A stretch of DNA of 52,352 nt from Candidatus Hermodarchaeota archaeon (GCA_016839365.1 JAEOUH010000058.1:1-52352); one strand, 5' to 3'. Numbered from the stretch's first letter, positions 2,908 through 20,998 are shown. Made by a program: numbers and translations. Notes: generated by a model not told the origin, from the letters alone.

Positions 2908-5370
2908 TTGAAGGAACAATCGAACCAGGAACCAGAAACAGAACGGCTTTCAATGCGCATAAAAGGAATGCATTGTGCTGCTTGTGTCGCCACAATCGAG
3001 AAAGCTTTACTCCAACATCAGGGTGTTGCCAACGCCTCAGTTAATCTATTGGAAGAGAAAGCTACCATTGATGTTATTCCGGGGAAAGTGACCCGTCAAG
3101 AGTTGGAAGAAGCCGTTGTGTCAACAGGTTACACGCCAAAACGAGCCACTATGACACTGACTCTATCCCCCTCACCACGCTCAGATGAATGGTCATACAT
3201 CAAAGAAACTGTTCTGAATATCAACGGCGTATTGTCAGTCTCGGAGCATGTTATGTCTGGGCGATTAGTAGTCGAATACGATGAGGTATTGGTTACGCTG
3301 AAAATCGTGCGAAACAGTCTGAAATCGATAGGGTTTGACATTGCAGCTGATGTGACCACAGAGATTGACCGTGAAGCCATGAGCCGTAAACATGAAATCC
3401 GCTATTATTCGTGGCGCCTGGCTTTTACAATCTTTTTCACCGTTCCCATTGTCCTCTTCTCATTTTTCCCGCATCTTCTTACTCCCTATCTTCCTCTGGG
3501 AATTACCCCTGCTGTAGTTCTGTTTCTTCTCACGACACCGATTCAGTTCATTGGTGGGTACCCATTTTACAAGTCTGCTTTGAATGCCGCGAGACATGGA
3601 AAAACAAACATGGACACGCTCATTATGTTGGGGACAAGTGTCGCCTACTTCTACTCTGTTGTAGCTACCTTCCTTCTGATAGGTCAGGAGGTCTTCTATG
3701 GCTCTGCAGCCATGCTGCTTAGCTTCATTCTTCTTGGGCGAACGCTAGAAGCAATCGCGAAAGGACAAACTTCCCAAGCGATTCGTGCGCTCATGGACTT
3801 ACAACCCAAAACTGCCATCGTTCTCCGAGACGGTGAAGAAATCACCATCCCAACAGATGAAGTCGATGTGGGGGAGAAGCTGCTTATTCGCCCAGGCGCT
3901 CAGATTCCCGTGGATGGCTATGTGGTTGAAGGTCAATCCTCGGTCAACGAGGCCATGATTACAGGCGAATCCGTTCCTGTGAGTAAAAAGGTGGATGATG
4001 ATGTCATCGGTGGAACGATTAACGAAACGGGAATACTAGTAATTGAAGCAACTAAGGTCGGATCAGACACCGTACTGGCTCAGATTATTCACATGGTTGA
4101 AGAAGCCCAAACCCATAAGCCGCCAATTCAACGAAAAGCTGATGCCATAGCCGAAAAGTTCGTACCTTTCATCATTCTCCTATCCCTCATCGTGTTCAGT
4201 GCATGGCTAATCCTAATCGTCTTCACACCTTGGTTTCCAGGACTTACTTGGGTCGCCGCAATGGGCTTTTCAATCGCAGTATTAGTTGCCGCTTGCCCTT
4301 GTGCACTTGGGTTGGCTACGCCTGCAGCTCTAATGGTAGGTATTGGTCGGGGTGCACAGCTTGGGATTCTAATTAAAACTGGCGAAGGTTTAGAAGTTAT
4401 TCCCCAAGTGGACACAATGGTGTTTGACAAAACCGGCACTCTAACCATCGGAAAACCAACAGTGACCGATATTTACACAGCGGGAGACTTCGACGCCAAA
4501 GAAGCCCTTTCGTTCATTGCATCAGCCGAAAAATACAGCGAACATCCCCTCGCGAACGCAATAGTTCGTTATGCAGAGGAAACCGACATCCCGTTTTTAG
4601 AAATCAATGACTTTGATTCTATTACAGGAAAAGGTGTTCAAGCCGTAGTAGAGAAACGTACGATTCTTGTTGGAAATGATCTTCTTATGCAAGAACATGG
4701 GGTTGATATCACGGAGCTGGAATCACATATTGTTCCACTTCAAAAAGATGGAAAAACCACAATCTTTGCCGCTAGAGACGGAAACCTTCTCGCATTAATA
4801 GCCATCGCGGACGTTCTCAAACCCGACTCAAACCAAGCTATTACACAACTTAAGAAGATGAATATCGACGTAGTCATGCTTACGGGAGATAAGCAACAAA
4901 CCGCAGAAGCGATTGGTCAACAAGCAGGCATCAGTAGTGTTATCGCACAGGTTCTACCTGAAGAAAAAGCTCACGAAATCCAAAAGCTCCAAGCGCACGA
5001 ACGTACCGTCGCCATGACTGGTGACGGGATCAATGATGCCCCTGCACTGGCTCAAGCAGATGTTGGAATCGCTCTAGGTTCTGGAACGGATGTCTCTGTT
5101 GAAACCGGTGACATCGTTCTTGTCCGAGACAACCTCCTTGATGTAGTGGCTGCAGTTCAGCTGGGAAAAAAAACTGTCTCCAAGATTCGGCAGGGCTTTT
5201 TCTGGGCTCTAATCTATAATATTATTCTTCTCCCAATTGCGGCTGGCGCATTCTATCCCTATATCTTCCTTCGTCCTGAATGGGCCGCATTAGCCATGGC
5301 TCTGTCCAGTGTAAGCGTTGTTACAAATGCCCTACTCCTCCAACGATTCAAGCCTCTCCTCGACTCCTGA
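2908..5370 (+). CDS. copA: Cu(I)-translocating P1B-type ATPase
   Basis: N-terminal GMHCAAC HMA domain, TGES, CPC, DKTGT, SEHP, GDGINDAP, and YN / MALSS transmembrane Cu ligands. Confidence 0.95.
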   Translation: MKEQSNQEPETERLSMRIKGMHCAACVATIEKALLQHQGVANASVNLLEEKATIDVIPGKVTRQELEEAVVSTGYTPKRATMTLTLSPSPRSDEWSYIKETVLNINGVLSVSEHVMSGRLVVEYDEVLVTLKIVRNSLKSIGFDIAADVTTEIDREAMSRKHEIRYYSWRLAFTIFFTVPIVLFSFFPHLLTPYLPLGITPAVVLFLLTTPIQFIGGYPFYKSALNAARHGKTNMDTLIMLGTSVAYFYSVVATFLLIGQEVFYGSAAMLLSFILLGRTLEAIAKGQTSQAIRALMDLQPKTAIVLRDGEEITIPTDEVDVGEKLLIRPGAQIPVDGYVVEGQSSVNEAMITGESVPVSKKVDDDVIGGTINETGILVIEATKVGSDTVLAQIIHMVEEAQTHKPPIQRKADAIAEKFVPFIILLSLIVFSAWLILIVFTPWFPGLTWVAAMGFSIAVLVAACPCALGLATPAALMVGIGRGAQLGILIKTGEGLEVIPQVDTMVFDKTGTLTIGKPTVTDIYTAGDFDAKEALSFIASAEKYSEHPLANAIVRYAEETDIPFLEINDFDSITGKGVQAVVEKRTILVGNDLLMQEHGVDITELESHIVPLQKDGKTTIFAARDGNLLALIAIADVLKPDSNQAITQLKKMNIDVVMLTGDKQQTAEAIGQQAGISSVIAQVLPEEKAHEIQKLQAHERTVAMTGDGINDAPALAQADVGIALGSGTDVSVETGDIVLVRDNLLDVVAAVQLGKKTVSKIRQGFFWALIYNIILLPIAAGAFYPYIFLRPEWAALAMALSSVSVVTNALLLQRFKPLLDS

Positions 5371-9166: not shown

Positions 9167-10234
9167 ATGAAAAAGGAATCCGATACAATTAGTCAAAGAG
9201 TCGCAAATGAACTTTTTACACAACACAGACCTGATGACTGGGATAATCTCCAAGAACGGCAATTGAAACTCAAGCGCCAGCTTTGGCGTAATATGGTTGG
9301 TAACACGATTTTTCTTGAAGCACGAAATCTTGCACCTATTATTGGCTGCGAACGAGTCTATCTAAAGTTTGAAGGAAGTAACCCAACTGGAACTCAAAAA
9401 GACCGAATAGCAATGGTCCTAGCTGATCATGCCGCCTGTCAAGGCTTCAACGTAATCACAACCGCAACTTGTGGTAATTTTGGTGTTGCCCTAGCCTTTG
9501 CTGCAAAACACTACGATCTCACTGCTCATATCTTTATTCCCAAAAAATATGATGTTCCTAAAGATCGACAAAAAAGAATGGAAGCCTTTGGTGCCCGAGT
9601 CACACTCGTGGATGGGTATTATGAGGATGCGGTTGAGTATTCCATTCATTCTGCTGCTGAGAAAAGTTGGTTTAATGCTAATCCCGGATCAAATGGTATC
9701 CCCGAGTTATCAATTACCGCCTATAGCGAGATTGCTTACGAGATCTTTCGTGATCTTCGTCGAGTACCCAACTATATTTTCTGCCCAGTTGGGAATGGAA
9801 CGACATTCGCGGGAATCTATGCAGGGTTCAAAAGATTACTTCTAATGGGCAAAACAATGAATGTTCCCAAAATGGTAGCTACAAGTACACGCCGAGGTAA
9901 TCCCATCATTAAATCATTCAAAGAAAATAAAAAAACCATTGCTGATCTAAAGCCCGAAGAAATCAAAGAAAGCAAAATCAATGAACCTTTGACAAACTGG
10001 CGTGCCTACGATGGTCAACTAGCCCTAGACGCGATAAACGAATCATTAGGGTTTGGGGAATATGCCTCAGATTCTAGAATGATTGAGTTCTCAAAGCTTG
10101 TGCGATCTGAGGAAGGTCTAAGCGTGCTTCCGGCTTCTGCAAGTACACTTGCGGTCATGGAAACACTTGGACGTGAAGGATTTATCGTAAAAGGAACCTA
10201 TGTCGCGATCCTTACAGGACGAGACTTTTCCTAA
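9167..10234 (+). CDS. PLP-dependent fold-type II enzyme (threonine synthase-like)
   Basis: LKFEGSNPTGTQKDR (PLP-Lys), TATCGNFG, PVGNGT phosphate loop, ILTGR. Confidence 0.85.
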   Translation: MKKESDTISQRVANELFTQHRPDDWDNLQERQLKLKRQLWRNMVGNTIFLEARNLAPIIGCERVYLKFEGSNPTGTQKDRIAMVLADHAACQGFNVITTATCGNFGVALAFAAKHYDLTAHIFIPKKYDVPKDRQKRMEAFGARVTLVDGYYEDAVEYSIHSAAEKSWFNANPGSNGIPELSITAYSEIAYEIFRDLRRVPNYIFCPVGNGTTFAGIYAGFKRLLLMGKTMNVPKMVATSTRRGNPIIKSFKENKKTIADLKPEEIKESKINEPLTNWRAYDGQLALDAINESLGFGEYASDSRMIEFSKLVRSEEGLSVLPASASTLAVMETLGREGFIVKGTYVAILTGRDFS

Positions 10235-10279
10235 TGCCAACTATCTTCACCCAATCTATAAACCTAACAGATTCAAAAT

Positions 10280-10891
10280 TCATTCATGATCCCGAGAGTT
10301 CTCATTTACAGCGCAAGTATTATCAAGGTCAAGTCGCATAGTGAGATCTCCCTGCTCTGTCCGAGTGATTGCTTTGAATCCATGTTCCTCATAGAAGTGC
10401 TGTAATGGTATTCCCTTCTCGTCTTTTTCTTCCGTATCTAACACAATCGCTTGGTAAATTCTATCACGTGCTCGATTGATAACAAATTGTAAAACTATAT
10501 CACCAATCCCTCGTCCACGCTGGCGAACGGCTATCGTATCTAGATAGAAAGTTGGAGGCTCATAATCTGGCAATCGATAGCCTAGAACTAAAATTTCAGG
10601 GGTCTCCTGGATAAGAACGAAAAAGAAAAGCACTTCTGGATTGTTCAAGCGTTCAACGATTTCTTGACGAGTATAACGTAAATCAAACCGAAAATCTTCT
10701 TCTTCGAGGATTTGAAACCAGCGGAAACATCGTTCATCACACTCTTTTGGCAAAACAAGCTCAAGTTCCCCAGAATATTTCATGGATAATTCGTCTTTAA
10801 ACTGGAACCATCTTTCCTTTTCCTCGTTTTCAGGAATTTGCCACAAAATTTGAATTCCCACCTTAAATCTTTGAATAGTTATCGGCTTCAT
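10280..10891 (-). CDS. GNAT-family N-acetyltransferase
   Basis: YLDTIAVRQRGRGIG acetyl-CoA motif A and FYEEHGF motif B. Confidence 0.85.
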   Translation of the reverse strand: MKPITIQRFKVGIQILWQIPENEEKERWFQFKDELSMKYSGELELVLPKECDERCFRWFQILEEEDFRFDLRYTRQEIVERLNNPEVLFFFVLIQETPEILVLGYRLPDYEPPTFYLDTIAVRQRGRGIGDIVLQFVINRARDRIYQAIVLDTEEKDEKGIPLQHFYEEHGFKAITRTEQGDLTMRLDLDNTCAVNENSRDHE

Positions 10892-10908
10892 TCAGCGTTC
10901 CACGCTTA

Positions 10909-11934
10909 TCACAGCTGAAGATTGTACCTGGCACATGCGGACTCAAGTAATCGTCGAATCAGATCATCATATGTGTAGCCTGCTTTCATAGCCATGTAAG
11001 GATAGAATGAAAGGTCATTTTCAACCGTATCAAAGTCCATTCCTGGTAATGGATTCACTTCAAGAAAGAAGATTTCGCCCCGTTGATTCATTCGAAAATC
11101 AATTCGCACGAAATCACGAATTTCCAAAGCATACCAAATTTTTGTTGAAATCTCTTCTAATCTGTTTCTCAGGGTTTTAGGAATTTTCGCAGGACAGATG
11201 TAGTGATCAAGGGAGTCAAGGATGGTCTTAGCTCGTTGTCCAAAGACTCCATGGACCTCCGGAAAAAGAGAGAAATCAATTTCAAGCACTGCTAGCATTT
11301 CTGGGCTTTTACCAGGACGTCCTAACAAGCCTGTACTGAATTCTCTTCCCTCAATGAATTGTTCAATCAGGATTGGCTGTGAATATTCATTAAGCATAGA
11401 TCCAAGCTTGGCTTTGAGTTGGCTGTGATTTGAAACAACATTGTCTTCATTGATTCCCATCGAAGAGCCCTCCTCGATGGGCTTCAAAATATATGGGTAT
11501 CCTTCTTTGACCTCTCCAACTTGTTTAAGGGTGGAATAGACAAAAAATTGAGGGGTCTGGATTCCATGATACATCAAGATTTTTTTGGTCCACGCCTTGT
11601 TTAGCCCAACTGCTGTCGTTATTACATTTGAACCCACATATGGAATATTGAGCATTTCAAGAATGCTTGGAACATGTGATTCACGACTATCACCTCGCAA
11701 TCCTTCGGCCCGATTAAAGGCTAAATCGGGTTTAATCCGCTTCAGCGTCTCGACAAAATTCTCATCGGCTTCGATGAATACGTAGTCATGACCAGTTGCT
11801 TCAATGCCATGTTTAATGAGTTCAACTGTATGAGGTGGATCGTATTCAACCTGAAACTCAGTCTCCTCGCTTCGCGTGTTTAAGATTAGTGCAATTCGCA
11901 TATTCTTTCCCTTCATTGGGTTTTCTGACAGCAT
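10909..11934 (-). CDS. D-Ala-D-Ala-ligase-like ATP-grasp amino-acid ligase
   Basis: FNRAEG, IPYVGS, NKAWTK, ILKPIEEGSSMGI, IEQFIEGREF, RIDFR, LEVNPLPG. ATG 11934 lies 1 nt after the upstream stop (alternative start 11901). Confidence 0.85.
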   Translation of the reverse strand: MLSENPMKGKNMRIALILNTRSEETEFQVEYDPPHTVELIKHGIEATGHDYVFIEADENFVETLKRIKPDLAFNRAEGLRGDSRESHVPSILEMLNIPYVGSNVITTAVGLNKAWTKKILMYHGIQTPQFFVYSTLKQVGEVKEGYPYILKPIEEGSSMGINEDNVVSNHSQLKAKLGSMLNEYSQPILIEQFIEGREFSTGLLGRPGKSPEMLAVLEIDFSLFPEVHGVFGQRAKTILDSLDHYICPAKIPKTLRNRLEEISTKIWYALEIRDFVRIDFRMNQRGEIFFLEVNPLPGMDFDTVENDLSFYPYMAMKAGYTYDDLIRRLLESACARYNLQL

Positions 11935-11935
11935 A

Positions 11936-13297
11936 TTAGATTTCAAAGGATGCAATTTCTTCCTTAAAAATTGACAAGACCTGGGGTTTCAATTCCTTTG
12001 GAACTGAAATTGATTCATAGATTGAGACAAAGGTTTTGATAAGCTCTTCTTCGCGTTCCTTTGCTTCTTCAAAAAGTTTTCCTGTTCTGAAATCGTCAAC
12101 TAGCCTTCCTTGAACTCCTTTTAGTGAGGCTAGATAGAACGCGAACAGTTGCTCATCACGTCCCACTTTCGTATGGGCATAGGTGAGTGTTATCGCCTTC
12201 CCTCCAAATAATGTGAAGAATTGTTTATACGGGCGTTCAAGCATATTTACGTGAAGCCCGATACTTTTTGGATCAATTCCGCTCGCTACGCACATTAGAT
12301 ACATTTTGGCACAAATCGAGCAGTTGTGACACCAACGGTAATCTCGCCCTGCCTCAGTTTCGGTAAAACAACTCATTTGGTACTTGGCGATTTTTGGATA
12401 ACGATGAGCAAGTGTTCGTTGAATCATCATATCCATTAACGGTTCAATCAAACTTCCTGTGTGAACAGAACCTCCTGAAAACATCTGAGAGATTTGATCA
12501 ATATGGATCGTCCAACGATGGGATTGATCGTAACAAGGATGAATTACCCATCTTCCCTGGGCATCCATATACGAGGCCGCTGTTGTTTGCTCATTACCGA
12601 AAAGAAGATACTTTCCTTGGTCAGCGTAAGCGAAGGGAATGAATTCAAGAGCGTATTCTGTTGTTTGTAATCCCCACCCTAATTCCGTTATGGGAAGTCC
12701 CAGATATGGATAATCACGGAGTTTCCCAGTTTCATGTTGTAGGATTCGCATTTCTTTTCCGAATTCTTTTTTGAATTTCTGGGCTAGCCTCGTTTTATGT
12801 TTCTCTTCATATGTCATACTGGCTTCGACAACATAGACCATTTCTGGTTCAAGACCAATTTCTTCTGCCACAGCGTAAGTTAAGAGACTGTCTTTCCCGA
12901 AACTAACCCCGACAATCGCTCGAAAGGGTGAATTCACCGGTTCAGGATCAGGTCTAATAATGACCGAATCCTGGAATTGATAATCGATATTATAGAATCT
13001 CCGCACGACGTCATCGGTTGATGTTCCGTCAACGACTGTACATGAGGGGATGTCCTTCAGGAAGTTTTGGACGAAGTAGGGTTCAAGGAGTGGTCGGCCT
13101 GAATGATATGTGATGGTATTTTCCTGAAAAACAAGAGGCAAATGCATCGTGGTTGCGAGGGCTAAGTTATCCTTGAGGGCCATCCGGGTTTGAGTTGGCG
13201 TGGCTCCCCAAACTGACTTCGGATAGATTATAGGATAGCTACTATCGCGAAATCGTACTACTATCCCGTTGTCAGTGCGTTCTGAAATGATTTCCAT
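11936..13297 (-). CDS. PP-loop ATPase resembling the MurL glycopeptidyl-glutamate epimerase / QueC superfamily
   Basis: SFGKDSL PP-loop, FGNEQT, YDQS, SLIEPL, then the Cys cluster SCF...WCHNCSICAK. About 450 aa. Confidence 0.6.
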   Translation of the reverse strand: MEIISERTDNGIVVRFRDSSYPIIYPKSVWGATPTQTRMALKDNLALATTMHLPLVFQENTITYHSGRPLLEPYFVQNFLKDIPSCTVVDGTSTDDVVRRFYNIDYQFQDSVIIRPDPEPVNSPFRAIVGVSFGKDSLLTYAVAEEIGLEPEMVYVVEASMTYEEKHKTRLAQKFKKEFGKEMRILQHETGKLRDYPYLGLPITELGWGLQTTEYALEFIPFAYADQGKYLLFGNEQTTAASYMDAQGRWVIHPCYDQSHRWTIHIDQISQMFSGGSVHTGSLIEPLMDMMIQRTLAHRYPKIAKYQMSCFTETEAGRDYRWCHNCSICAKMYLMCVASGIDPKSIGLHVNMLERPYKQFFTLFGGKAITLTYAHTKVGRDEQLFAFYLASLKGVQGRLVDDFRTGKLFEEAKEREEELIKTFVSIYESISVPKELKPQVLSIFKEEIASFEI

Positions 13298-13338: not shown

Positions 13339-15045
13339 TTACACAGCTGCCTTTAATCGTACTGGCGCAGAACGATGGAGATATCGTTTAGATACAGGAT
13401 AGTTTTCAAAGGCAATTGTGTAGGAGCTTTCGAAATATTCACGAATCTCTTTCTCAACGACCTTTGCTAATTCTGGCTCTGGTGGTGCATCAACCCAATG
13501 AGTGCTCCCTTTCGGCGTTGCGATCATTTTACCCTCTTTTTGAACCATGATTCCATCCTTGATAGTCATCCAAGCTTGGCTAAGCCCGTTCACCAGCTTA
13601 TCAGGATTTTTCCCATAGTCTTCCTTGGGGTCGATGTTATAGATGGCAATATCCGCATCTGCACCTGTGCCAAGATGACCTTTCATCGGTAAGCCCAATA
13701 TTTTAGCGGGACCCGCCCGGGTTCCTATGATATAGTCCTGTAGTGACCATTCTGTTTCAAGTGCAGGAAGCACCATACGTTTCTGAGAAGATTTTCTAAT
13801 ATCTTTGAACACCATATCACGTGCCTTTCGACTCATCAGCCATGCGGCAATCCATGGATAATTGATGAAGGTTCCCGCATTGGGGTGGTCTGTGCTGGGG
13901 ATGACACGCCATGGATCGTTTACAAGGAGGGCAATTTCGAGGCCGATTCCCCATTGGATTGCATTCACTCGGGAGCTTTTCTTGAACACATAGGGAACTA
14001 CTCCGCCCCCGCACTCAATTTCAATGTCATCGTTAACCCAACGGCTTCCACTAATCCCTCTCAAAATCCACTCCCAGGGGCCATCAGCTGTCATAGTAGT
14101 GGTGTCCGAAAAGACAATTTGTCCGAGATCACAGCTGACATTCTGATGATTCTTTAGATAATTCGCAATGGGTTCACTACCTGACTGAAAAGTGACAAAA
14201 CTGTCTCCTCCATAGGAGTGAAATTGAATATGGGTCATATGGAGATTGTAGCCAGATTTCCGTTGAATCGATCGATTTTCTGCAATTTTCATCGTTTCAA
14301 TTGTGATATCTGTGTTACCAGGTCGTCCTAGCATATTGGCGTGCAAGTGAAGCGAATGGGGGAGACCTAAGCGTTCTGCGGCTTCAATTAAAGTTATAAT
14401 GGTATCGCGGGCTGTCACATCAAAACATGAAATCTGCTCATCCAAGCTCTCAACATTACCACCCCACGACCAATCGCACACGCCTGTAGGATTCACTGCC
14501 TTCACAGCATAGCCTTTAGTTGCTTGGAGCATCCAGGCTACAAAAGCTGCGGCTTTGTCATATTCTTTTTCACGCGCATAATCCATGATTTGAACATGAT
14601 TCCCGAAGAGTGGAAACATGATTTTATCATGGGGTTGAATTTCTCCCAGCTCCTCATGGGTATGACGTGCAACAATCCCTGCAGTTGCAGCTTCTGTTAC
14701 AAAGGTGTAGCCCATCTGAGAAAATTTGTAGCCCGTCATGAAAGTTGGGGGAACGCTTGCCCAAACTCCAGCCCGGCAAATATCCGAATATGTATAGGGG
14801 TCCATTCGGGATTGATCACATCGGAGAACACGACCCGAATCAACCTTCGGTGTTGCGAGGTGAGCATGAATATCTACACCACCTGCCACTACCATTCGAT
14901 TTTCAGCATCAATGATTTCAGCGGATTCTGGACTAACTGAATCAACTATTTTTCCATCTTGAATGGCTAAATCCATAATTTCGTAAATTTCGTTTTTAGG
15001 ATCAACAACATAGCCATTTTTTATGACAATATTACGCGGTTTCAA
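13339..15045 (-). CDS. fwdA: Formylmethanofuran dehydrogenase subunit A
   Basis: GGVDIHAH, MGYTFVTEAA, LGLPHSLHLHANMLGRPGN, THIQFHSYGG, TMTADGPWE, STDHPNAG and GHLGTGADADIAIY. Confidence 0.95.
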   Translation of the reverse strand: MKPRNIVIKNGYVVDPKNEIYEIMDLAIQDGKIVDSVSPESAEIIDAENRMVVAGGVDIHAHLATPKVDSGRVLRCDQSRMDPYTYSDICRAGVWASVPPTFMTGYKFSQMGYTFVTEAATAGIVARHTHEELGEIQPHDKIMFPLFGNHVQIMDYAREKEYDKAAAFVAWMLQATKGYAVKAVNPTGVCDWSWGGNVESLDEQISCFDVTARDTIITLIEAAERLGLPHSLHLHANMLGRPGNTDITIETMKIAENRSIQRKSGYNLHMTHIQFHSYGGDSFVTFQSGSEPIANYLKNHQNVSCDLGQIVFSDTTTMTADGPWEWILRGISGSRWVNDDIEIECGGGVVPYVFKKSSRVNAIQWGIGLEIALLVNDPWRVIPSTDHPNAGTFINYPWIAAWLMSRKARDMVFKDIRKSSQKRMVLPALETEWSLQDYIIGTRAGPAKILGLPMKGHLGTGADADIAIYNIDPKEDYGKNPDKLVNGLSQAWMTIKDGIMVQKEGKMIATPKGSTHWVDAPPEPELAKVVEKEIREYFESSYTIAFENYPVSKRYLHRSAPVRLKAAV

Positions 15046-17548: not shown

Positions 17549-18601
17549 ATGAATAGCTCCGTTCCATCCTATTACTTCACAACTCGTGATTTAGTCACAA
17601 TCGCCGTTCTTAGTGCACTAGGCGGCGCTTTAAGCACCTTTGTTGGGTATATTGGGCAGCTCTTTAACGCCGCAGTGGGCACCCCGTTTGGCGCTGGACA
17701 GTTTCTCAGTGGCTTACATGTCTTCTGGATTATTTTAGCTGCTGGTCTTATCCGGAAAACCGGCGCCGCGACCGCAACTGGTCTTCTCAAGGGATTTGTC
17801 GAATTCTTCACAGGAAGTACCCATGGAATCATCGTTGTGTTAGTCAGCCTATTCCAGGGCCTCATCATTGACATCGGTTTCTATGCAATAAAACAACAGG
17901 ATTCTCTTCCACTTTGGACAATTATAGGCGGTTTCGCCGCCGCCTCCAATGTCATTGTTTTTCAACTTTTCTTCTTCTCTGGTGCCCCGCTGATATTCCT
18001 AGCACTTCTCGTCATTCTAGCATTTACATCTGGGATCATCTTTGCTGGTTATTTCGGACATGCTACAACCCTTCTTGTCTTAGAATCCAGAATTTATCAC
18101 TCAGCTGCTACAATGAATACTATTACGCCAAAATCTCCTTGGCAGCGTCTTGGACCATATCGTCTTTCTGCGCTAATATTCTTGATTGTGATTGCCTTTG
18201 GAGCAAGTCTTTATGCTGTCTTTGTATGGCGCCCTGTCCTTGATCCCCTCAGCTGCGAAGTCGTGGGCCAAGTATCCCATCCATTCCGATTTTCATACCT
18301 TAGCTATTCGGGTCAAGAAGTAACAATCGAAGCAGAACTCATCGGATCGGTAACCTATCTTCCTCCCCAAAATTACACTGGGATTCCTCTGACTGTCATC
18401 CTTGCTGACGCTCAGCCAGTCACATCAGCGACTACACTTCAAGTCATATCAGCTGACGGATATAGGGCCGCCTTTAATCTCACCACGGTGCTAAGCGATT
18501 GCGAAATCATCTTAGTAATCGATGATGGCCTTCGTCTAGTAGCAAAGAATTACCCGGGATGGTTCTGGGTTCAGAAGGTAGTCAGCCTTGTCATCATCTA
18601 A
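17549..18601 (+). CDS. ECF transporter S-component fused to a C-terminal SUOX-like domain
   Basis: YFTTRDLVTIAVLSALGG, six TM helices with RKTGAA, an extra TM, then VVGQV...YTGIPL...SADGY...LRLVA...WVQKVVSL. Confidence 0.78.
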   Translation: MNSSVPSYYFTTRDLVTIAVLSALGGALSTFVGYIGQLFNAAVGTPFGAGQFLSGLHVFWIILAAGLIRKTGAATATGLLKGFVEFFTGSTHGIIVVLVSLFQGLIIDIGFYAIKQQDSLPLWTIIGGFAAASNVIVFQLFFFSGAPLIFLALLVILAFTSGIIFAGYFGHATTLLVLESRIYHSAATMNTITPKSPWQRLGPYRLSALIFLIVIAFGASLYAVFVWRPVLDPLSCEVVGQVSHPFRFSYLSYSGQEVTIEAELIGSVTYLPPQNYTGIPLTVILADAQPVTSATTLQVISADGYRAAFNLTTVLSDCEIILVIDDGLRLVAKNYPGWFWVQKVVSLVII

Positions 18602-20171
18602 CGCCTCCTCGCCCATACCTATTCCTCTAATTCGAATCTCGAACTTAACCTACACCTATGAGGGAAGTGACAAGCCTGCTGTACGTAATATCAATCTGGC
18701 ACTTCATCAAGGCGAGTTCACTATCCTTGGAGGGCCTAGTGGTTGTGGCAAAAGCACCTTAGCTCGTTGCCTCACAGGGTTCATTCCTCATGAATATCCA
18801 GGCACTTTCCAAGGAACAATCACAATCCGAGACCAAGATACCCGGGCTCTTGCAATCCGCGAATTAGCTCAATCAGCCAGCCTTATACAACAAGATCCCG
18901 ACAGCCAACTTGTGACGCTCAACGTCACAAATGAAGTTGCATTTGGGTTAGAGAACTTCCAACACTCCCCCGCAACAATTGAACCACGCATCCAATGGGC
19001 ACTAAGAGCGGCAAATGCAGAAAATCTTCGATCTCGTAACACCCACACACTCTCAGGCGGTGAAAAACAGAAAGTAATCATCGCTTCATTTATCGCGCTA
19101 CAGTCTCCCATCCTTATTTTAGATGAGCCCACCGCTAGACTCGATCCTCATACAGCAACGGAAGTTCTCAAAACCCTCCAAAAACTGCATAATCAAGGTG
19201 CCACAATACTAGTAATTGAACACCGAATCCAACCCTTTCTCTCATCCGCTTCCCGTGTTCTTCTCATGAATGAAGGAACAATCATCTACGATTGCAGTCC
19301 AACCCAACTCTCTGCAAATCCTGCGCCTCTCAACGACTTGGGTGTGTACCTGCAACCATCAACATATTCAGAGACCATTCAAGCCAAATCAAAAATAGAA
19401 CAGGAAACATTGAGGATTCAGGGTCTCACCTTCACCTATCCTCGGATAGAAGAGCATAATTCTCCGAGACCTACTCTGGGGAATCTGTCCTTCTCTCTCC
19501 ACTCAGGGGAAATCATTGCATTAATGGGTCCAAATGGGTCAGGAAAATCAACGCTCCTCCTCCAACTTATGGGGCTACTAACACCTGATGCGGGAACGGT
19601 TCATCTCAATCAACAGAATATTCATGATCAACCCGTTTCCCAGCTAGCCCGTCAGATAGGATTCATTTTTCAAAACCCTCTCCATCAGATATTCGCTCAC
19701 ACAGTTAAAGAAGAAGTGCTACTTGCTACGAAACATCTCGGGCTCTCCGAATCCTCAGAGATCAAACTTCGCGCAGAACAACTAATGCGAAGCTTTGGCC
19801 TTCTCAAATATCAAGATCAATCCCCATATGCTTTAAGTCTGGGAGAGCAGCGTCGACTAACCATCGCCTCCATCCTACTCCACAAGCCGCAAGTTCTCTT
19901 ATTCGATGAGCCTTTCATCGGTCAAGATTATCGTAATGTGCAACGTCTCATGGGTGTCATTCGAAGTGAAGCGGCTCAGGGAACAACTGTGTTACTCGCC
20001 ACCCATGACGCGGCTATCGCTGAAACCTACTGCTCACGACTCCTCTTCCTTTTTGATGGACGACTCCTTATCGATGCTCCAGTTAAGCAAGGGCTGGAAC
20101 ACCTCACCATATTATATCAAACCAGAGTGTTAGATGAACAAGGGTCATTGGGGGTCGAAGCGGAAGAATGA
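18588..20171 (+). CDS. ecfA: ECF transporter fused double ATPase (A-A')
   Basis: Two ABC domains: GPSGCGKS / QDPDSQL / LSGGEKQ / LDEP and GPNGSGKS / FQNPLHQ / LSLGEQR / FDEP. Confidence 0.93.
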   Translation: MSSSNASSPIPIPLIRISNLTYTYEGSDKPAVRNINLALHQGEFTILGGPSGCGKSTLARCLTGFIPHEYPGTFQGTITIRDQDTRALAIRELAQSASLIQQDPDSQLVTLNVTNEVAFGLENFQHSPATIEPRIQWALRAANAENLRSRNTHTLSGGEKQKVIIASFIALQSPILILDEPTARLDPHTATEVLKTLQKLHNQGATILVIEHRIQPFLSSASRVLLMNEGTIIYDCSPTQLSANPAPLNDLGVYLQPSTYSETIQAKSKIEQETLRIQGLTFTYPRIEEHNSPRPTLGNLSFSLHSGEIIALMGPNGSGKSTLLLQLMGLLTPDAGTVHLNQQNIHDQPVSQLARQIGFIFQNPLHQIFAHTVKEEVLLATKHLGLSESSEIKLRAEQLMRSFGLLKYQDQSPYALSLGEQRRLTIASILLHKPQVLLFDEPFIGQDYRNVQRLMGVIRSEAAQGTTVLLATHDAAIAETYCSRLLFLFDGRLLIDAPVKQGLEHLTILYQTRVLDEQGSLGVEAEE

Positions 20172-20998
20172 AAATGCGAACATCCTCCTTTGGCTATCTG
20201 CAACGTAAATCCTTTGTTCACCGGCTCAACCCGTTGACAAAATTCACTGTCCTTATTCTCATCGTGATTTTAGCTGTAACGTTGGTATCCGATATTATTG
20301 CCCTGTGTATTTTTAGCTTCTTGCTTCTGGGCTTCATCGGTGCCGGGATTAGTCTCCGCTATGCATTCGGGCGCCTTCGCCGGCTTCTAACATTAATTCT
20401 TCTCATTGCTTTAGTGCAACTGCTTTTCACGCCCTATGGCGCCGTTCTTTTCTACCTCATTCCACCCCTTGCCCCAGGATTTGGTCCATTCCTCCCCATT
20501 ACAACTGTCGGAATATCCAATGCTTTCAATCTCGCCTTCCGGCTCATCAACATTGTATTAGCAAGCGCACTGTTTGTTGCATCAACCGATCCCAGCCGTT
20601 TTGCCGCTGCTTTAACCTCTATTCGAATCCCTTATCGTTATGGATACACTCTCGTTCTTGCCCTACGGTTAGTTCCACTCTTTGATGAAGAATCCAATAC
20701 AGTTCAGTCCGCCCAACGAGCCCGAGGGATCCCCGTTGATCAAGGCGTCATCCGTGGCTTCTTGCGACGGATTCGTTACACCTTCATGCCCATGCTGTTC
20801 TCAGCGTTAGGTAGGGTTGATTCCCTCACACTGGCCATGGACGGTCGAGGGTTCGGGTATGCTCCAACCCGCACCTTTCTCGTCTTTCCCAAATTCACTC
20901 CTACCGATTGGCTCATTGTGATTGCCAGTGTACTCCTAACTGGTTTCTTTCTTTGGAATTTCCTCTTTGTTACTGCCTTGCCTCACATTATCGGATAG
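20168..20998 (+). CDS. ecfT: ECF transporter transmembrane T component
   Basis: SFVHRLNPLTK, STDPS, LALRLVP, AQRARG and AMDGRGF coupling motifs; ATGA overlap with the ATPase gene. Confidence 0.93.
   Translation: MKMRTSSFGYLQRKSFVHRLNPLTKFTVLILIVILAVTLVSDIIALCIFSFLLLGFIGAGISLRYAFGRLRRLLTLILLIALVQLLFTPYGAVLFYLIPPLAPGFGPFLPITTVGISNAFNLAFRLINIVLASALFVASTDPSRFAAALTSIRIPYRYGYTLVLALRLVPLFDEESNTVQSAQRARGIPVDQGVIRGFLRRIRYTFMPMLFSALGRVDSLTLAMDGRGFGYAPTRTFLVFPKFTPTDWLIVIASVLLTGFFLWNFLFVTALPHIIG

Follow-up and report, generated by a model that had tools for sequence, protein, structure and literature searches.

QueC acts on a carboxylate with ATP, forming an amide or nitrile in an ammonia-dependent reaction. 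MurL is, to our knowledge, the sole characterised member of its protein family. The reaction of MurL follows that of its ligase; it requires ATP and Mg, and AMP is given off (PMC5808125, PMC8788868). Ngg, which has GNAT and ligase activity, and the amidotransferase AsnO together make N-acetylglutaminylglutamine amide (NAGGN), a bacterial osmolyte (PMC8070244). Analyzing a stretch of 52,352 nucleotides (nt) from a Candidatus Hermodarchaeota archaeon (GCA_016839365.1 JAEOUH010000058.1:1-52352; the window, hereafter), we describe a cassette of four genes. They encode a PP-loop protein, called X here, a Ddl-like ATP-grasp ligase, a GNAT acetyltransferase, and a pyridoxal phosphate (PLP)-dependent enzyme. 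Most likely, the cassette specifies a non-ribosomal route that would ligate, adenylate and acetylate to give a small peptide-like compound of modified amino acids. We found no published pathway in the literature that accounts for it.

A four-gene cassette in archaea and spirochaetes

The X gene (11936-13297, minus strand) encodes 453 amino acids (aa) from its ATG, with a QueC-fold core that carries SFGKDS. On the same strand lie the genes of the ligase (10909-11901; 330 aa from the ATG at 11901) and of the GNAT acetyltransferase (10280-10891; 203 aa, acetyl-CoA motif region RQRGRGIG). The gene of the PLP enzyme, a fold-type II protein assigned to the PRK06381 family (9167-10234, plus strand; 355 aa, motif NPTGTQKDR), is convergent with the GNAT gene. 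Listing and translating the open reading frames (ORFs), we recovered all four genes, with the strands and motifs that an initial annotation of this sequence had described. Its spacings of 45 nt between the convergent stop codons of the PLP and GNAT genes (10235-10279) and of 17 nt between the ligase and GNAT genes (10892-10908) hold as well. The gap of 1 nt that it gave between X and the ligase holds only with an alternative ligase ATG at 11934, in an open frame that reaches 11955. An alignment with 28 orthologues favours the ATG at 11901 (protein beginning MRIAL), and the gap is then 34 nt. No membrane segments were noted in the four proteins, which are all of ordinary size, and the hidden Markov model (HMM) matches of the three partners of X are far beyond chance (PALP, PF00291, 1.5e-58; Dala_Dala_lig_C, PF07478, 7e-34; GNAT, 8e-07; PRK06381, 1e-110).

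The genes had been proposed to belong together, and they do form a conserved unit across phyla. Checking 80 related loci from species-representative genomes, we find X, the ligase, GNAT and the PLP gene together in about 75. The hosts are Thor-, Hermod-, Hod- and Borrarchaea, Bathyarchaeia, and some Spirochaetia. In five homologue loci that we compared, the same genes stand beside X and the flanks differ. Three layouts occur, with unrelated flanks: the PLP gene is convergent and downstream in Asgard archaea and one Bathyarchaeia clade, divergent and upstream in a second Bathyarchaeia clade, and co-directional, in the order PALP-X-DDL-GNAT, in Spirochaetia, Borrarchaeum and a few Bathyarchaeia. 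The GNAT gene directly follows the ligase gene in most related loci. No further universal neighbour appears among the loci; the TPR, Lhr helicase, ArsR, OTCase, CBS and Amidohydro_3 genes are each lineage-specific.

X and the ligase remain neighbours even in subfamilies that are only 25-38% identical, and the divergent members keep this pair only. In an archaeal phylum with small genomes (0.5-1.2 Mb), X is present in 17 of 301 genomes, and the ligase gene is adjacent in 10 of these 17; the PLP and GNAT genes are missing from these X-ligase loci. Five of the small genomes were checked by ribosomal protein S3Ae and are archaeal. The four X-carrying small archaeal genomes that were searched have no Mur_ligase_M domain. 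Since the pair is kept in divergent subfamilies and in small-genome archaea, we regard the ligase and X as the core of the system, as with MurD2 and MurL.

The presence of the cassette in Asgard archaea is patchy (36 of 301 sampled genomes, 9 of 90 high-quality genomes, and 3 of 15 in the genus of the window). In the phylogenetic tree, X of the window and its 93%-identical twin are sister to a Bathyarchaeia clade (support 99) within an Asgard-dominated clade; the clade of the spirochaetes comes next, with MurL as a distant outgroup. The cassette proteins are 60-75% identical between phyla. The tree and the patchiness point to horizontal spread of an accessory unit, and the four genes are most likely one accessory, horizontally mobile cassette.

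Several lineages show additional features around the cassette. One Bathyarchaeia clade has, directly upstream of X, a 40-aa ORF for a desulforedoxin-like zinc ribbon that ends in VEEE (L003:2323-2445, plus strand; also in L004); a CBS-domain gene and one of OTCase-like type precede it. The ORF bears a superficial resemblance to the LysW-type carriers used by ATP-grasp enzymes, and it is absent from the window. In 13 Bathyarchaeia loci (L071-L086, e.g. L072:4347-4793, plus strand), an AIG2/gamma-glutamylcyclotransferase-like gene follows GNAT on the same strand, with a convergent Amidohydro_3 gene beyond it in most. The AIG2-like gene is a possible hint at a gamma-glutamyl linkage or at turnover of the product. 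Among the small-genome loci, two add a lysine-2,3-aminomutase-like gene. In five (L124, L125, L129, L132 and L134), the X-ligase pair is syntenic with genes for a ThiF/MoeB-type E1-like adenylyltransferase and a nucleoside diphosphate kinase; a DUF763 protein is encoded in most of these five, and a small metallopeptidase-like gene is present in three. Cassettes assigned to a Krumholzibacteriaceae metagenome-assembled genome (MAG) and to an Actinomycetota MAG (L069 and L020) are near-identical to Bathyarchaeia copies (branch lengths about 0.04-0.05). These two contigs are probably mis-binned rather than recent transfers.

Protein X in relation to MurL and QueC

X carries the motifs SFGKDS, GNEQ, and SC-x12-WC-x2-C-x2-C. 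Scanning it against Pfam, we found zero families, and hence detected neither an asparagine-synthase nor a GATase/glutaminase domain. Its sequence has zero matches in the PDB, and the family profile finds only weak PP-loop matches there, TtuA and MnmA (E 0.016). The sole NCBIfam match is MurL (NF041275), whose cut-off is 700 bits; X scores 19.3 bits, or 16.5 when the genome is searched. The QueC models (PF06508, TIGR00364) are not among the Pfam and NCBIfam matches of X at E<=0.01, and the only QueC-model match of the genome sits on a different contig. A genuine QueC or tRNA enzyme would have spoken against the initial annotation; by sequence, X is neither. The family is large: 477 homologues were found at E<=0.001, and an exhaustive search at this threshold gave at least 323 clusters, many of them full-length at 25-38% identity. 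In an alignment of 60 homologues, G134, C310, C323 and C326 are invariant, K135 and S137 nearly so, and C329 is 98% conserved. A further conserved set is specific to X (Y25, W30, E164, K168, R299 and Y300).

We examined the fold on an AlphaFold2 model with a predicted local distance difference test (pLDDT) score of 96.3. Residues 124-342 superpose on QueC (3bl5) with Z 14.3 and a root-mean-square deviation of 2.8 A (188 of 195 residues), and the core matches Cap9 (9nto) with Z 14.2; further PP-loop enzymes rank below. A Foldseek search of the model matched QueC and QatC at 1e-4. The four cysteines C310, C323, C326 and C329 form a Cys4 site in this QueC-fold core. The N-terminal domain (residues 1-120), folded alone (pLDDT 95.9), gave no Foldseek match at E<=0.001; its best VIA match, to RNase H-like domains (Z 5.3 over 82 residues), is within background. 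None of the listed matches covers the C-terminal domain (343-453), which these searches barely tested. Predicting the complex of X and the ligase gave scores of 0.39, 0.00 and 0.00.

The relationship to MurL was then compared at the profile level, with ten MurL-type proteins taken from Proteobacteria, of which four pass the MurL cut-off. The X profile recovered all ten. Performing local hhalign, we aligned residues 72-341 of X with MurL (98.7%, E 5e-16). The global alignment (99.2%) is collinear from 1-443 of X to 23-444 of MurL over 398 columns, with low confidence at the ends. It pairs SFGKDS, GNEQ, SLIEP, MSC and RWCHNCSIC of X with the ordered core motifs of MurL (PP-loop, SNE, SLLRP, SSC and RWCxxCxKC; about 445 aa). 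Both families share the PP-loop, (S/G)NE, a Gln, SL(I/L)xP, SC and RWCxxCxxC. True MurL proteins score 770-822 bits on NF041275, in comparison with 18-37 bits for representatives of the X family. In the comparison of X with MurL and QueC that the initial annotation had proposed, the sequence is nearer to MurL, and the core fold is that of QueC. Judging by family and fold, X is predicted to be a PP-loop adenylating enzyme. Its scores and alignments place it in a separate family of the QueC/MurL lineage, which is neither MurL nor QueC.

Unusual forms of X were also seen. A contig of Thor type (the one that also carries L045) has an 803-aa open frame (L137:2183-4594, plus strand) that joins X (1-433) to a complete Ddl-like ligase (473-802) through a low-complexity junction. 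It may be a true fusion or a frameshift artefact in the last 20 codons of X; searching the protein database, we found no fused X forms of at least 794 aa. On a Bathyarchaeota chromosome that carries a full cassette, a 228-aa ORF apart from it (G306:C1:128053-128589) matches only the N-terminal 180 residues of X. In one small-genome archaeon (L131; G315:C2), two tandem X copies lie beside the ligase, and a third copy on another contig (G315:C20) is broken by four stop codons.

The partner enzymes and neighbouring genes

The ligase falls under all curated Ddl cut-offs (TIGR01205, 179.7 against 243 bits; NF002378, 154 against 245.65 bits). Its best PDB matches are Ddl and VanA, at about 1e-23. 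It keeps the counterparts of DdlB K215, R255, D257, E270, N272 and S281; we take the first five to be the ATP-grasp catalytic residues of E. coli DdlB. At the D-Ala specificity positions of DdlB, Y216 is replaced by Thr and H63 by Glu, and the GEDG segment of DdlB reads SRES. The invariants of the family include R10, E19 and N63, and two of these, R10 and E19, are new and lie in the N-terminal domain. The ligase is therefore predicted from these residues to be catalytically competent but not a Ddl. We found no Mur ligase domain (Mur_ligase_M) in the genome of the window, which is 84% complete, consistent with the earlier statement that archaea lack peptidoglycan. A survey of racemases gave mixed results.

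The GNAT protein scores 29.8 bits on PF00583, above the gathering cut-off of 20.7. It has only weak matches to the models of RimI, AAC(3) (AAC(3)-XI) and ArsN (ArsN1), and falls in no specific family.

The PLP enzyme passes the NF004996 (PRK06381) model with 369.7 bits against a cut-off of 266. On the thrC model TIGR00260 it reaches 93 bits, with the cut-off at 167.1, and a separate true thrC (201 bits) lies on contig C19 of the same genome. None of 14 control genomes has a protein above the PRK06381 cut-off. Aligning the enzyme with Thermus thermophilus ThrC (1uim), we find that the PLP lysine is kept (K61 = K78), while R160 is changed to Ser, S155 to Gly and T88 to Phe. A conserved NPG replaces the ThrC segment around R160 in 72 orthologues. 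Arg160 and Ser155 of ThrC bind the phosphate of the substrate. Since the phosphate-binding arginine is missing, O-phosphohomoserine is probably not the substrate of the cassette enzyme. By these scores the protein belongs to the PRK06381 family and resembles threonine synthase without being ThrC, which bears out its first description as threonine-synthase-like with the atypical motif NPTGTQKDR. A literature search found nothing on PRK06381, nor on Ddl in Thorarchaeota.

The cassette has other neighbours in the window. Upstream of X, at a distance of 41 nt and likewise on the minus strand, is a gene for formylmethanofuran dehydrogenase subunit A (fwdA; TIGR03121, 686 bits; 13339-15045). It stands alone, and fwdB, fwdC and fwdD are not beside it. 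The adjacency of fwdA and X was seen only in the window and in one 93%-identical relative (locus L010), and probably reflects local synteny or read-through transcription. We considered, and rejected for this restricted occurrence, a tie of the cassette to formylmethanofuran/tetrahydromethanopterin chemistry. An ECF/cobalt-type transporter set (ABC_cobalt permease, double ABC ATPase and CbiQ; 17549-20998, plus strand) and a heavy-metal P-type ATPase with an HMA domain (2908-5370, plus strand) also lie near the cassette. Their annotation looks ordinary.

Possible chemistry and comparison with known systems

The substrates, order of steps, fate of the adenylate and product that we infer for the ligate, adenylate and acetylate route are as follows. 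The PRK06381-type PLP enzyme would make or tailor an amino-acid building block, and the Ddl-like ligase would couple two amino-acid units via an acyl-phosphate (ATP to ADP and Pi). X would then adenylate the terminal carboxylate of the ligase product on its QueC-type core (ATP to AMP and PPi). Following the precedent of MurD2/MurL, X may convert the terminal residue from the L to the D form ahead of hydrolysis of the adenylate, and GNAT would acetylate the free amino group. We favour the inversion step, tentatively, because MurL is the nearest characterised relative of X, has the same extra domains, and also follows a ligase. The initial annotation had proposed a ligate, activate-or-epimerise and acetylate pathway; the conserved unit and the PP-loop protein stand from it, whereas its D-amino acid, order of steps and product stay proposals.

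Several observations weigh against inversion by X. The QueC fold suits formation of an amide or nitrile with ammonia equally well. X reaches only 19 bits of the 700 that the MurL model requires, and MurL sits on a very long separate branch of the tree. The polar invariants of MurL (NGH, NHQWSK, R283 and HKPFEC) are not kept; when 60 X sequences are aligned, none of H207, H252, K256, R283, H372, K373 and C377 (MurL alignment numbering) belongs to the positions with at least 80% conservation. If these invariants include the epimerisation bases, X does something else. The description of X as MurL-like therefore holds as a real but distant relationship by hhalign, while its extension to epimerisation loses ground with the wide miss of the cut-off and the absence of MurL's conserved His, Lys, Arg and Cys. 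Moreover, some loci and the small-genome archaea have no GNAT gene, so the core chemistry can do without acetylation.

X may instead cap the terminal carboxylate with free ammonia or an amine, in a QueC-like manner, as an amide (or nitrile or lactam), and the product would then be an N-acetyl-dipeptide amide. We consider such capping unlikely when taken singly, though nearly as likely as MurL-type inversion. The superposition of the X core at Z 14 on both QueC and Cap9, a QueC-like conjugating enzyme, fits it, as do the QueC-type pattern of the Cys4 site and the loss of the MurL polar invariants. An acetyltransferase, a peptide-bond former and a PP-loop carboxylate activator are also the enzyme set of NAGGN synthesis (PMC8070244), and an accessory, patchy occurrence like that of the cassette is common for osmolyte genes. 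Yet the sequence of X is much nearer to MurL than to QueC, with MurL profiles matching where the QueC HMMs fail. Pfam detects no asparagine-synthase/glutaminase domain in X and the cassette has no such partner gene, while nothing in the NAGGN route corresponds to the PLP enzyme.

The remaining explanations place the cassette in other kinds of chemistry. In the tabtoxin cluster, a GNAT resistance gene stands with the genes of an ATP-grasp ligase and a PP-loop beta-lactam synthetase. By analogy, the cassette might make an antimetabolite-type dipeptide of the tabtoxin or rhizocticin kind, in which GNAT would give self-protection and the PLP enzyme would supply the unusual warhead amino acid. The horizontally shaped, patchy distribution (3 of 15 genomes in the genus; a Bathyarchaeia sister group), the resistance acetyltransferases AAC(3)-XI and ArsN1 among the weak best GNAT matches, and the changed substrate pocket of the PLP enzyme agree with this. 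We nevertheless judge it quite improbable: no exporter, regulator or immunity gene is consistently linked among the loci, 60-75% identity between phyla is unusual for toxin clusters, and X and the ligase occur in archaeal genomes of 0.5-1.2 Mb, where secondary metabolism is rare. Slightly less probable again is that X and the ligase act on a macromolecule, at a tRNA base or a protein end, instead of making a free small molecule. The fold list of X is rich in tRNA enzymes (TtuA, NcsA, MnmA, TilS and ThiI), QueC-like Cap9 and QatC conjugate onto proteins, the pair is retained in small-genome archaea, and one Bathyarchaeia clade has the 40-aa zinc-ribbon ORF, with its EEE ending, immediately upstream of X. 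That ORF is, however, absent from the window and confined to that clade; the ligase is of the small-substrate Ddl type, the linked partners are a PLP amino-acid enzyme and a GNAT, and the N-terminal domain of X lacks a clear match in the fold search (best Z 5.3 over 82 residues). The nearest named families, Ddl, threonine synthase, RimI and QueC/MurL, could also suggest that ordinary housekeeping genes (Ddl, ThrC, QueC and RimI) merely lie side by side, an explanation we find barely credible. The ligase is below the Ddl cut-offs, the PLP enzyme is below that of thrC, and X has no QueC-model match and 19 of 700 bits for MurL. The true thrC is elsewhere in the genome, where Mur ligases were not found, and the cassette is missing from most sampled Asgard genomes, yet its linkage holds across phyla.

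Returning to the favoured route with MurL-type inversion, X might be the first MurL-type, ATP-driven, one-way peptide epimerase outside peptidoglycan synthesis, a status that we regard as doubtful and that is drawn by analogy. If true, Asgard archaea, Bathyarchaeia and small-genome archaea would gain a racemase-independent route to a small D-amino-acid peptide (an osmolyte, signal or surface component). The X family is a large sister family of MurL, tied to a Ddl-like ligase, in archaea without murein, some with genomes below 1.2 Mb. Identifying the product would assign a function to four widespread genes that are named as hypothetical or misnamed ("threonine synthase", "D-alanine--D-alanine ligase") in Asgard archaea and Bathyarchaeia. 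It would show the chemistry open to the MurL/QueC scaffold, and could bring a new archaeal metabolite to light. With confident AlphaFold2 models (pLDDT 96) and proteins of ordinary size, the enzymes seem open to direct assay.

The cassette can be set beside five known systems. As in MurD2/MurL, a ligase gene accompanies a protein of about 450 aa with PP-loop, NE, SL(I/L)xP and SC...RWCxxCxxC; the partner of X is, however, an ATP-grasp Ddl-like enzyme instead of a Mur ligase, no murein genes were found in its host, a PLP enzyme and a GNAT are added, and the hosts are archaea and spirochaetes. With QueC (3bl5, 2pg3) and Cap9/QatC, X shares the core fold, the PP-loop and the C-terminal Cys4 site. 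It is, however, twice as large as QueC and has an additional domain at either end, with no clear solved counterpart for the N-terminal one, and it has amino-acid enzymes as neighbours in place of a queD/queE context. The ligase resembles Ddl and VanA in its best sequence matches and catalytic residues, but no murein pathway was found in its host. The PLP enzyme is of fold-type II like ThrC (1uim, 2zsj) and keeps the PLP lysine, the Asn loop (CGN) and the PLP-phosphate loop (GNG), whereas it lacks the S155/R160 phosphate site and misses the thrC cut-off. The NAGGN route of Sinorhizobium and Pseudomonas likewise uses N-acetylation, ATP-dependent peptide-bond formation and a PP-loop enzyme on the terminal carboxylate. 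There, AsnO is of the asparagine-synthase type and takes nitrogen from glutamine, while X is of the QueC/MurL type; Ngg is a single bifunctional protein, no PLP enzyme is needed, and sequence relationship to the cassette goes no further than the superfamily level. In summary, as read from its proteins, the cassette would work like the MurD2/MurL pair or the NAGGN route, yet its members fall outside the MurL, QueC, Ddl and ThrC families.

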